64,000 nt of DNA. It comes from Candidatus Bathyarchaeia archaeon. GTDB taxonomy: Bacteria > Patescibacteriota > Microgenomatia > PFEM01 > JAFGMK01. Shown here piece after piece: positions 2,895-62,254 of the stretch (the first letter of the stretch is position 1; every line of letters starts with the position of its first letter). The position numbers and the translations under genes were made by a program. The notes under the pieces are model-generated. The model was not told the DNA's origin. It ran no database searches and saw only the letters and a program-made list of their open reading frames with translations. Location of the stretch: NCBI GenBank assembly GCA_035529595.1, contig DATKWK010000023.1, positions 206,961 through 270,960 of the forward strand. The letters run 5' to 3'.

Positions 2895-3428
2895 ATGAAA
2901 AAAAATAATTGTTTCGGTTTTACGCTAATTGAAACTTTGGTTACTTTAACTACTTTAGGCATGATGCTGATAATGGTTATTTCAACATTTATGACGGTTT
3001 TAACTAAGTCGGTAAAGGTAAGGGTGGTAGAAGCTGTCGATAATGATGGTAAGTACGCTCTTAGAGTGATGGAACAAATAATCAGGAATTCGTTACGGAT
3101 TATCTCGAATAGCGAAGGGGAAACATGCCAATCAGGCATGAACTATCTTCGGGTCCAGGACAGTCATGGTAATTGGGCTGAATTTGCTTGTCTAAACGAG
3201 GGATTAGCAGACGGTTTTATCGCTTCTTCATCAGCCAGCAGCGACAAAAGATTGACGTCTCCGAAAGTAAAACTGGATAACTGTTATTTTAACTGTATTT
3301 CCGGTGACCTCAGCCAGCCGGATCGGGTAGAAATTTACTTTACCCTGAGTCAAATTGAATCAACATCCCGAGTCGAAGAACGGTCGTCAAACGAATTTCA
3401 TACCTCGGTAATTTTAAGAAATTTTTAA
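2895..3428 (+). CDS. Pilin/pseudopilin-like protein
   Basis: N-terminus MKKNNCFG|FTLIETLVTLTTLGMMLIMV, a canonical class III signal peptide. Confidence 0.65.
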   Translation: MKKNNCFGFTLIETLVTLTTLGMMLIMVISTFMTVLTKSVKVRVVEAVDNDGKYALRVMEQIIRNSLRIISNSEGETCQSGMNYLRVQDSHGNWAEFACLNEGLADGFIASSSASSDKRLTSPKVKLDNCYFNCISGDLSQPDRVEIYFTLSQIESTSRVEERSSNEFHTSVILRNF

Positions 3429-13884: not shown

Positions 13885-14429
13885 AGAGCAAATGCATCCT
13901 ATATTGTCGGTTCGCGCTTTTTGACGCTGTGTCTGGGCGCAAAAAGACAGTGCACGGGGTAGGATTTACACCTACGAAACCGATTAAGGTGGCGGTTTTA
14001 CAGACCGCTGCATTTGCTACTCTGCCACCCGTGCCTTTCGGGCAATTAAAAAACCGTCCTTAATATAAGGACGGTTTTAACCGTGGTACCACCTTATTTG
14101 TCAGGGTTTGTTGGAATTAACCAAAAAAAACCGCCCAGAGGCGATTTACCCTAACCTCTCCGGCACTCCGGATGAACCGACATGCCTTAGCGCTGTAACG
14201 GGCGCGCCCGGAAGAACTTATTCCCGATCTGAAATTGAGGATTGATTCTTCAGCTCCAAGTGGGTAATTCGATCCGGGGATACGGTAAGCTTTCACCCGC
14301 CGCCTACTCTCTTTTGTCACTCCCCTTCTCTACTTCACCACTCATCAATGCCTTTTTCTAAATTGTTGCGGAATTTATATCATAAATCTTTTGCTCTTGT
14401 CAAGTTAATGTGTTAGAATTTTTACTGAA

Positions 14430-47533: not shown

Positions 47534-47654
47534 AAAAATTAGTAATTTTCTTTACCCCATACAAATTACTAGTTCGTTTATGCCCCCAAATTAAATATGA
47601 ATTAGTGACAAGCGACACGAGGCGAATCAAGACCGCCTGCAATTTCCTACGTAG

Positions 47655-47738
47655 TGCCGAGGGTGGGATTTGAACCCACACAAGGTTTCCCCCACAGGAT
47701 CCTAAATCCTGCGCGTCTGCCAATTCCGCCACCCCGGC
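47655..47738 (-). tRNA. tRNA-Leu(TAG), type II with a long variable arm
   Basis: GCCGGGGTGGCGGAATTGGCAGACGC..., anticodon loop TTTAGGA, T-loop GGTTCAAATCC; 84 nt; CCA not encoded. Confidence 0.85.
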
Positions 47739-47745
47739 ATTTTCA

Positions 47746-47988
47746 TTAAAGTGTCCGTTTTAAATATGATCTTCCAAAGCCAGATTTAAGTTGCTTTTCT
47801 CTAAGAATCGCTTTTTCCTTTGAAAGACAAGCTTCAAAGTAGACAAGATTAAAGGGTAGTCTATTTTTTGTTACCCTAATTTTCCCCAGGTTATGTTTTT
47901 TATATCTCTTTCTAAGGTTATGAGTCCATCCAATATAATATTTATCATCTAAGCTACTTTTTAATACGTATGTATAATAAAATCTCAT
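47746..47988 (-). CDS. GIY-YIG nuclease-family small protein (UPF0213/YhbQ-like)
   Basis: MRFYYTYVLKSSLDDKYYIGWTHNLRKRYKKHNLG carries the GIY...YIG plus R and HN core. The start is placed at the Met just after the tRNA-like fragment. Confidence 0.7.
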   Translation of the reverse strand: MRFYYTYVLKSSLDDKYYIGWTHNLRKRYKKHNLGKIRVTKNRLPFNLVYFEACLSKEKAILREKQLKSGFGRSYLKRTL

Positions 47989-47990
47989 TT

Positions 47991-48055
47991 CGCGTCTGCC
48001 TGCCCGCAATCGCTACGCTCAAGCGTTGCAGGCGGGCCGATTCCGCCACCCCGGC
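47991..48055 (-). other. 5' fragment of a tRNA-Leu gene (nt 1-19 and the D-stem 3' strand) interrupted by a 38-41-nt GC-rich hairpin insertion after G18G19; no anticodon or T arms
   Basis: The - strand reads GCCGGGGTGGCGGAAT-[cggcccgcctgcaacgcttgagcgtagcgattgcgggcagg]-CAGACGCG, then aa and the ATG of the GIY-YIG ORF. Confidence 0.6.
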
Positions 48056-48103
48056 TTCCGAAAACGTATTTACTTCAGTTTGATTAATTATAGCAAAGGA
48101 AAG

Positions 48104-59851: not shown

Positions 59852-59938
59852 TGGTGCCGAGGGCGGGACTTGAACCCGCACGGAGTTGCCCCCACAGGAT
59901 TTTAAGTCCTGCGCGTCTACCAATTCCGCCACCCCGGC
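59852..59938 (-). tRNA. tRNA-Leu(TAA), type II
   Basis: GCCGGGGTGGCGGAATTGGTAGACGC..., anticodon loop CTTAAAA, long variable arm, T-loop GGGTTCAAGTCCCGC; CCA encoded. Confidence 0.85.
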
Positions 59939-61798: not shown

Positions 61799-61852
61799 AT
61801 GTATGACTTTCCAAATTCAATCCGGATTGGTAAAATTAACCGATAGCTTAAT

Positions 61853-61938
61853 TGCCGGGTCGTCTAATGGTCCGCCTCGCCTCCGGCGAGCGAGACTTCG
61901 CCAAATCTGCCGAAGGCAAGATGAAGGCGAGCAGGACA
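61853..61938 (+). other. 5' fragment of a tRNA-Gln gene (nt 1-18 plus CAGGACA) interrupted by a 61-nt GC-rich hairpin insertion after G18G19; no anticodon or T arms
   Basis: TGCCGGGTCGTCTAATGG-[tccgcctcgcctccggcgagcgagacttcgccaaatctgccgaaggcaagatgaaggcgag]-CAGGACA, then t and the ATG of the GIY-YIG ORF. Confidence 0.6.
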
Positions 61939-61939
61939 T

Positions 61940-62230
61940 ATGTGGTATGTTTATATTCTAAAAAGCAGGTATTTTCCAAAATCCTATGTTGGTTGTACTA
62001 ATAACATTGAAAGGAGGTTAAAGGAACATAATGATGGTAAGAGTATCTTTACAAAACGATATCAACCATGGAATTTAATCAAAACAGAAATATTTAATGA
62101 TTGCAAAACAGCAAAAAAAAGAGAAAAGTTTTACAAGTCAGGAATAGGTAGAAAAAAACTAAAAGAGATTTTTTATAAATTGCCGGGTCGTCTAATGGCA
62201 GGACACATCCCTTTGAAGGATGATATCTAG
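61940..62230 (+). CDS. GIY-YIG nuclease-family small protein (UPF0213/YhbQ-like)
   Basis: MWYVYILKSRYFPKSYVGCTNNIERRLKEHNDG has the GIY-YIG core. The ORF runs 50 nt into the downstream tRNA-Gln gene. Confidence 0.7.
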   Translation: MWYVYILKSRYFPKSYVGCTNNIERRLKEHNDGKSIFTKRYQPWNLIKTEIFNDCKTAKKREKFYKSGIGRKKLKEIFYKLPGRLMAGHIPLKDDI

Positions 62231-62254
62231 GTTCGAATCCTAGCCCGGCAGCCA
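62181..62254 (+). tRNA. tRNA-Gln(TTG)
   Basis: TGCCGGGTCGTCTAATGGCAGGACA CATCC CTTTGAA GGATG ... CTAGGTTCGAATCCTAG CCCGGCA G CCA; U1:A72 pair; CCA encoded. Confidence 0.85.

Follow-up and report, generated by a model that had tools for sequence, protein, structure and literature searches.

The Ssn proteins, described in 2025, are a family of single-domain GIY-YIG nucleases of about 94 amino acids (CDD cd10448) that bind hairpin-forming repeats of 20-50 nt, named NTS or SRM, flanking their own genes (Chenal et al. 2025 Nat Commun, PMC11893778). These enzymes cut single-stranded DNA only, a few nucleotides upstream of the hairpin and in its variable flank; Y6, Y17 and E64 are the catalytic residues of SsnA, and the layout of repeat, gene and repeat was likened by the authors to an insertion sequence (PMC11893778). 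There is no mention of tRNA, Patescibacteria or duplication in that paper (PMC11893778). Here we describe a locus of about 0.4 kb, module A, at which a gene for a small GIY-YIG protein lies inside a tRNA-Leu gene on contig DATKWK010000023.1; the whole stretch analysed (64,000 nucleotides, positions 206,961 to 270,960 of the contig) is called the window. We read module A as a selfish cassette that consists of an Ssn-type GIY-YIG gene and its cognate DNA hairpin, and give this reading a probability of roughly 60%. The nuclease type has its precedent in Ssn, while literature searches found no description of a tRNA-embedded layout with a gene stump and a replacement copy, and this layout, together with the fixed offset reported below, appears to be undescribed. 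A preliminary description of the same DNA had recognised nothing known in the arrangement, which holds for its embedding in a tRNA gene and does not hold for the nuclease.

Module A is read on the minus strand. It opens with a stump of tRNA-Leu (48037-48055), of which GCCGGGGTGGCGGAAT at 48055-48040 is identical to positions 1-16 (16/16) of the intact tRNA that begins at 47738, while positions 17-19 (48039-48037) are CGG where the intact tRNA-Leu has TGG. The stump is followed by a 38-nt imperfect palindrome (47999-48036, core CCCGCCTGCAACGCTTGAGCGTAGCGATTGCGGGCAGG) of a family with the outline CCYGCCYGC...GCRGGCRGG, hereafter called HP, and this is presumed to be the structure that the nuclease recognises in single-stranded DNA. 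The folding energy of the palindrome is -21 kcal/mol for RNA (z=-2.5) and, for either strand of the DNA, about -11 kcal/mol. The tRNA-Leu sequence then resumes with CAGACGCG (47991-47998, equal to positions 20-27, 8/8), and homology stops 8 nt past the hairpin. AA and the ATG at 47988 lead into an open reading frame (ORF) for a single-domain protein of 80 amino acids, ORF A (47746-47988, stop codon 47748-47746), which matches PF01541 at E=4e-14, and 7 nt past its stop begins the intact tRNA-Leu(UAG) (47654-47738), called by ARAGORN and by Rfam (RF00005, 58 bits). The order of stump, hairpin, resumed tRNA, AA-ATG, ORF and tRNA had been given in the preliminary description and is borne out by reading the minus strand, and so are the intact tRNA-Leu(TAG) and the assignment of the ORF to the GIY-YIG nucleases; the gap between stop codon and tRNA had been given as 8 nt and measures 7. 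That description had also considered that the likeness of the fragment to tRNA-Leu might be confined to the acceptor stem, and the stump reaches the D-arm.

On both sides of module A lie further features that touch its reading. A relic of the right half of HP (CGTAGGAAATTGCAGGCGGT, 47632-47651, minus strand) begins 3 nt beyond the 3' end of tRNA-Leu(UAG). Apart from HP itself it is the sole arm-like match of the window, against a chance expectation of about 1.2 for all 64 kb, and it is analogous to right-arm remnants past the intact tRNA at two related loci (L030 and L052). Upstream, an extended -10 promoter-like element, TGcTATAAT (48087-48095, minus strand), was read directly 31 nt ahead of the stump; a scan with the promoter consensus did not flag it because its -35 is poor. 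This element is presumably the tRNA promoter, from which stump, ORF and tRNA would now be expressed jointly, and the 7 nt between ORF and tRNA are too short for any promoter-like site. The window also holds a tRNA-Leu(taa) gene (59852-59938, minus strand) that has its first 19 nt in common with tRNA-Leu(tag) and carries neither stump nor cassette. The 8 nt with which the tRNA resumes in module A agree with the tag gene in 8/8 positions and with the taa gene in 7/8.

A second module of the same layout, module B, occupies 61853-62254 on the plus strand at a tRNA-Gln gene, as the preliminary description had stated, and its insert is of another hairpin type. A promoter-like site with a TG-extended -10 (61808-61836) lies 16 nt upstream of an exact stump of tRNA-Gln positions 1-18 (61853-61870, 18/18), which is followed by a GC-rich insert of 61 nt forming two hairpins (61871-61931, z=-3.25). 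The tRNA resumes for 7 nt with CAGGACA (61932-61938, positions 19-25), the GIY-YIG ORF (ORF B, 61940-62230, PF01541 E=1.5e-15) starts with the ATG at 61940 and is conserved as far as 62179, and the intact tRNA-Gln(UUG) (62181-62254) is called by ARAGORN and Rfam. There is no stop codon ahead of this tRNA, and the frame enters it by 50 nt. The same running of an ORF into a tRNA is seen in seven related loci (L005, L007, L008, L009, L017, L048 and L091); once RNase P has cut, the message of such ORFs would be without a stop codon. The proteins of ORF A and ORF B are 42% identical, and no further GIY-YIG ORF occurs in the window. Among its 11 tRNAs (ARAGORN, with Rfam in agreement), an extra 10-mer copy of the own 5' end within 600 nt is found for two, exactly those of modules A and B, and the coincidence of stump copies with the two GIY-YIG sites therefore excludes chance.

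The protein of ORF A belongs to the GIY-YIG superfamily by profile, catalytic residues and fold. PF01541 covers residues 4-72 and scores 53.1 bits for ORF A and 57.7 bits for ORF B against a cut-off of 22.6, and the alignments show no variation at Y7, Y18, G20, R28, H32 and E64. The AlphaFold model of ORF A (predicted local distance difference test score, pLDDT, 95.2) is one compact domain with a three-stranded sheet and helices, and its nearest solved structures in Foldseek are UPF0213 BH0048 and the nuclease domain of SLX1 (template modelling score about 0.7), with I-TevI weaker. The protein resembles the Ssn family (cd10448): Ssn proteins are single domains of about 80-100 amino acids with no DNA-binding extension, as is ORF A with its 80, and the catalytic positions Y7/Y18/E64 of the ORF A family stand beside Y6/Y17/E64 of SsnA. 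The hairpin-forming inverted repeats of 20-50 nt that accompany ssn genes likewise have their counterpart in HP. No Neisseria entry was found among the best 120 matches of a broad profile search.

Relatives of ORF A were collected in a scan of one genome per species, which returned more than 580; the best 80 loci were retained (L001-L080), comprising 86 ORFs in 80 genomes. A protein 100% identical to that of ORF A is encoded on an 846,852-bp contig, and relatives were seen in genomes of Patescibacteria, also known as the candidate phyla radiation (CPR), for example in Collierbacteria and Kerfeldbacteria. About 55 of the 86 homologous ORFs have a tRNA on the same strand 1-20 nt downstream; in a few the distance is 45-120 nt, and several run into the tRNA. 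These tRNAs represent about 20 anticodons (Gln, Leu, Asn, Lys, Val, Thr, His, Glu, Met, Arg, Phe, Ile), and nearly all tRNA-linked ORFs are preceded by the first 6-21 nt of that tRNA, a palindrome, the continuation of the tRNA and a start codon. The preliminary description had allowed that the GIY-YIG gene might prove to be a fixed neighbour of tRNA-Leu in related genomes, with no fragment present, and what the relatives display is a stump in nearly every case.

HP adjoins most of the 86 ORFs. Its outer arms are conserved while the interior varies, with an inner stem-loop kept and further hairpins sometimes nested in the loop, and its length is 35-47 nt, or up to 78 nt when nested. In 35 cleanly parsed loci, 14 copies point one way, 10 the other and 11 are symmetric; in L005 and L009 the hairpin stands inverted at the identical position of the same tRNA-Asn. 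Each of the two DNA strands can fold (-10 to -17 kcal/mol), and a role at the level of DNA is therefore indicated. Copies inside one contig are identical or differ by one base and copies from different genomes differ; L019 carries two 78-nt copies at two tRNA-Leu genes and L023 three copies, one of them inverted. Such near-identical copies are signs of recent spread. Type-A ORFs occur with HP, and type-B ORFs (module B and the second ORFs of L013 and L018) share the two-hairpin insert at the same offset of 6-9 nt, so the hairpin type follows the ORF type. HP is a conserved palindromic repeat and most likely serves as the recognition element of the nuclease. The HP motif was also seen in 16 stretches of IMG/VR viral contigs (L104-L119), GC-rich and with no GIY-YIG gene or tRNA nearby, with up to four copies in one 30-kb viral contig.

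The distance from the hairpin to the end of the resumed tRNA homology is nearly constant. In the same 35 loci the hairpin position p is 13.2 +/- 4.3 and the end of homology e is 23.1 +/- 5.3; the two are correlated (r = 0.86), and the offset e-p is 9.9 +/- 2.7 with a median of 9. In 10000 permutations no offset as tight was obtained (0/10000), a statistic that is inflated by the phylogenetic non-independence of the loci. Far more variation (-10 to 27 nt) is seen in the spacing between the end of homology and the ATG, and the conserved quantity is therefore that from hairpin to junction and not that from hairpin to start codon. By analogy with SsnA, junctions at this distance from HP would fit a cut a few nucleotides upstream of the hairpin. 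Insertion at the same D-loop position, as the preliminary description put it, is correct for the two window copies and fails across the family: the hairpin position ranges over 6-21, with a few loci at 0-3, which rules out D-loop-specific insertion.

Direct evidence of insertion with replacement comes from related loci at which both ends of the resident gene survive. In L030 a complete tRNA-Val(cac) lies between HP arms, and this unit is lodged in the D-loop of another tRNA-Val(cac); deletion of 3269-3393 in silico restores a perfect resident tRNA-Val of 76 nt with the same anticodon. L059 has the order stump, HP, 6 nt, ORF, intact tRNA-Thr, 10 nt, a second HP copy and the remainder of the resident gene, the acceptor stem of the incoming tRNA-Thr differs from that of the resident, and deletion of 2944-3350 in silico yields a perfect resident tRNA-Thr, likewise of the same anticodon, whose acceptor strands pair. 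Together these excisions show insertion plus a replacement tRNA. Remnants of the 3' part of the resident gene are found in L052, L008, L023 and L026, and in L054 and L059 direct repeats composed of 9-10 nt, HP and 6-13 nt stand on both sides of the insert. Complete tRNAs that bear HP are not a general feature: when every HP was deleted in silico, a new tRNA emerged at L059 and L051 alone. The preliminary description had already suggested a small selfish element with a GIY-YIG gene that is directed at tRNA genes and brings a replacement tRNA with it, and this view gains support from the roughly 20 anticodons, the rebuilt resident tRNAs and the 3' remnants.

The unit also occurs in other forms. 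In ORF-less versions (L019, L023) the stump, HP and 5-6 nt of tRNA are followed by 55-110 nt of filler and the tRNA, and L023 holds a mirror image at the 3' end, in which an intact tRNA-Leu is followed by 10 nt, 8 nt of the T-arm, two HPs and the tRNA 3' end. HP arms surround the ORF itself in L077, L040 and L043, and an exact unit of 297 bp is present in two tandem copies in L024. The host gene need not be a tRNA: in L044 and L077 (CPR) and in L079 and L080 (Bacteroidota, with arm sequences that differ), a 5' fragment of a gene for an NAD-dependent epimerase/dehydratase breaks off after GxxGxxG, and behind it come the element and then an intact gene. In L016 (2922-3400) a tRNA-Ala is followed 5 nt on by a GIY-YIG ORF, then HP and the 5' end of the 23S rRNA; a GIY-YIG/HP element also resides in an rRNA operon spacer. 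Beyond the CPR, homologs of type B were found at L094, where a tRNA-Arg stump is combined with CCTGCCTGCCGCAGGCAGG, and at L091, where a tRNA-Ser stump is followed by three small hairpins and an ORF that overlaps the tRNA. The tRNA-His stump of L046 carries a second, unrelated hairpin besides HP. Seven homologs outside the CPR (L050, L058, L067, L073, L074, L076 and L078) have another flanking inverted repeat, ACCCCGTTAGAGAT / ATCTCTAACGGGGT, which is multi-copy and whose right arm is overlapped by the C-terminus of the ORF.

Compared with the Ssn system, the cassette shares a single-domain GIY-YIG protein of 80-95 amino acids, a gene tied to hairpin repeats of 20-50 nt that sometimes stand on both sides, the positions of the Tyr, Tyr and Glu residues, and a junction at about 9 nt that fits a cut a few nucleotides upstream of the hairpin. 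It differs in that HP is of another sequence family and strand-symmetric, whereas NTS is directional; the cassette lies inside tRNA or epimerase genes, with a resident stump and a working replacement copy, and its ORF usually stands outside the hairpin and is presumably joined to the transcription unit of the tRNA.

From these comparisons we infer how the cassette may work, as regards the chemistry and strand of cleavage, the route of movement and co-transcription. The 5' piece would be the stump of the resident tRNA-Leu gene, its promoter kept. The intact tRNA downstream of the ORF would be a copy that either replaced the old gene or was regenerated, at no loss to the host. Stump, hairpin, ORF and tRNA would form a single transcript from the tRNA promoter, from which RNase P would free the tRNA; co-transcription is proposed because the gap between ORF and tRNA is only 7 nt and several ORFs, that of module B included, have no stop codon. 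By analogy with SsnA, the nuclease may bind the hairpin once the locus is single-stranded, during replication, heavy transcription or DNA uptake. With a strand-symmetric hairpin, nicks about 8-10 nt to its 5' side on each strand would give a staggered break that flanks the hairpin, and its fill-in would be expected to yield the repeats of flank, HP and flank that bracket the inserts of L054 and L059. Repair from another copy of the cassette, with hairpin and tRNA sequence as homology, may then place ORF and tRNA beside the hairpin, and a later deletion from the incoming tRNA to the resident remainder would give the compact layout of the window, with the half-HP relic at 47632-47651 as a possible leftover of this step.

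Several points weigh against reading module A as a mobile cassette. GIY-YIG enzymes hydrolyse DNA and cannot join strands; movement must therefore rely on host repair. The ORF stands outside the hairpin arms in the usual layout, in contrast to the published order of repeat, ssn and repeat, and the published SRM motif HGTCWY..RNCYNB matches no HP, with a single match in 472 kb (L046, 2805-2832). In most loci the stump equals the intact tRNA, and local duplication and replacement are equally possible there. For the copy in module A, too, either replacement or a local duplication of the 5' part would account for what is seen, and its mobility is suggested by the relatives. Nearest-neighbour ORFs have the tRNA identity in common in only 11 of 56 cases: jumps between different tRNAs therefore happen, and tRNA homology alone explains them poorly. 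The inflation of the offset statistic noted above belongs here as well, as does the result that no orthologous empty site was found for the loci of the window. Neither strict co-inheritance of ORF and tRNA nor free jumping is supported by the family; all ORF pairs at least 80% identical share their tRNA, and only such pairs do.

The match to the SRM motif in L046 is near-identical to the Neisseria NTS repeat (TGTCATTCCCGCGAAGGCGAGAATCTCT) and lies 169 nt upstream of the cassette. To compare the surroundings of module A, metagenomes were scanned with the flanking HAD protein, and 10 relatives were found at 69-84% identity, among which gene order is not conserved; none of the 10 has the cassette, and one has a cassette-free tRNA-Leu(tag) in a different context. 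An exact-protein look-up of the flanking genes returned the same strain only, and ORF A itself has no record there. Among short-read contigs of the same strain (SRR8554512, SRR8554643), L103 ends at the last base of HP, and L099 and L100 begin at CAGACGCG; such breaks at the hairpin boundary could reflect heterogeneity of the population or a mere drop of coverage at the hairpin.

One alternative, improbable as we consider it, is an immobile and domesticated operon in which stump and hairpin act as RNA (a 5' stabiliser, a control of translation or an RNase P decoy) and the nuclease benefits the host, for instance through restriction of single-stranded DNA that enters the cell, a role proposed for SsnA of Neisseria. 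The hairpin does lie 7-40 nt ahead of the start codon, where its 3' arm GGCAGG could mask a weak ribosome-binding site, but the equal frequency of the hairpin orientations and the inversion at an orthologous site argue against a strand-specific role in RNA, and the hairpin is also found downstream of or around the ORF, in versions without an ORF and on the 3' side. An ancient and widespread family, with at least 7531 protein clusters scoring at E<=1e-5 in a profile search, the host-level role of SsnA in transformation, and HP in viral contigs as a possible nuclease target would all suit such an operon, whereas turnover is evident from insertions that are nested or serial and from the resident tRNAs that could be rebuilt.

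The cassette could instead belong to a free-standing homing endonuclease like T4 SegB, which would cut double-stranded, cassette-free tRNA alleles and spread by break repair, the hairpin being incidental, either an unrelated small repeat or a disrupter of the target site in the stump. The closest analogue of the homing type is T4 SegB, a GIY-YIG enzyme whose gene lies in a cluster of tRNA genes and which cleaves a tRNA gene (PMC2330249); typical targets of homing enzymes include conserved tRNA sequences, and the GIY-YIG fold of ORF A has a weak likeness to the catalytic domain of I-TevI. With SegB and I-TevI the cassette shares this fold, a selfish gene by tRNA genes and the tRNA as target or homology; those enzymes, however, have 200-250 amino acids, DNA-binding domains and a defined double-stranded site, and come with no hairpin repeat, stump or replacement tRNA. 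ORF A has 80 amino acids and no DNA-binding domain, and TIGR01453 gives 16.8 bits for ORF B against a cut-off of 56 and no match for ORF A, which sets aside the I-TevI/Seg class. About 20 tRNA anticodons and a protein gene would have to serve as targets with no common sequence at the insertion point, and the enzyme would also be expected to attack the intact tRNA gene downstream. The hairpin is not easily incidental either, as its type changes with that of the ORF and the fixed 9-nt offset binds the junction to it; a homing enzyme of this kind is a quite unlikely source of module A.

Two unrelated processes, namely tandem duplication of the tRNA 5' region with the chance landing of a palindrome, and a GIY-YIG gene travelling as a passenger at tRNA promoters, would account for exact tandem arrays such as the 297-bp unit of L024, for stumps that gather several different hairpins (L046, L053, L091) and for HP without an ORF in phage contigs, but are improbable in view of an offset far tighter than independent events would give (0/10000), a hairpin type that tracks the ORF type, hairpin arms that directly flank the ORF or the cargo tRNA at some loci, and the position of the sole HP and the sole HP relic of the window, both at the cassette.

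Other known elements resemble a selfish cassette of hairpin and nuclease in part. REP/REPIN-RAYT and IS200/IS605 systems also combine a small nuclease gene with GC-rich palindromes that act as single-stranded hairpins, and their gene-less repeats spread within a genome; they differ in employing HUH tyrosine transposases with covalent strand joining, and REPs are extragenic and do not lie in tRNA genes. No HUH (Y1) transposase is present in module A, whose sole ORF is the GIY-YIG nuclease, and this class was rejected. Integrase-driven tRNA islands likewise enter a tRNA gene and restore its function by a copy of the displaced part, but their insertion depends on a tyrosine integrase and is directed at the 3' end of the gene, the part that they duplicate, whereas the cassette has no integrase, supplies the 5' part or the whole tRNA and measures only about 0.4 kb; module A, with a repeat that equals the tRNA 5' end, is not of this type. 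A group I or group II intron or another known RNA family was also rejected, as Rfam reported tRNA only (at gathering thresholds and at E<=1) and the downstream tRNA is complete. SLX1 and UPF0213 proteins (BH0048, EF2693, E. coli YhbQ type) offer the nearest solved structures, and SLX1 is a structure-specific nuclease for flaps and stem-loops; SLX1 needs SLX4 and a RING domain, however, and UPF0213 is without known association with hairpins or tRNAs.

Should the cassette act as proposed, it would provide a biological context for the nucleases of the Ssn type described in 2025, as the offset, the duplications of hairpin and flank, and the cargo suggest action in vivo. It would also be a selfish element inside an essential single-copy gene of a very small genome, which the stump and the working copy make possible, and tRNA alleles would move between lineages by the same process. 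More tentatively, and to our mind doubtful in its full extent, hairpin and GIY-YIG gene may form a transposon of a new mechanistic class, which would nick both strands as single-stranded DNA, overwrite essential genes with a carried copy and drive horizontal replacement of tRNA alleles in the CPR, with the offset of about 9 nt as the in vivo footprint of an Ssn-type nuclease. In the annotation of such genomes, the layout accounts for GC-rich hairpins, for 5' fragments of tRNAs and for ORFs that enter tRNAs.

Two minor observations concern the window as a whole. The 846,852-bp contig with the identical ORF A bears the NCBI name 'Candidatus Bathyarchaeia archaeon', while its gene content and all close relatives are those of Patescibacteria/CPR, and the label as an archaeon is probably wrong. 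Elsewhere in the window, a full-length T-box leader with its terminator (14064-14357, minus strand, Rfam 94.5 bits) lies about 30 nt upstream of a tRNA-Tyr gene (13950-14034, minus strand) and not upstream of a protein gene, and an ORF of 317 amino acids follows the tRNA.

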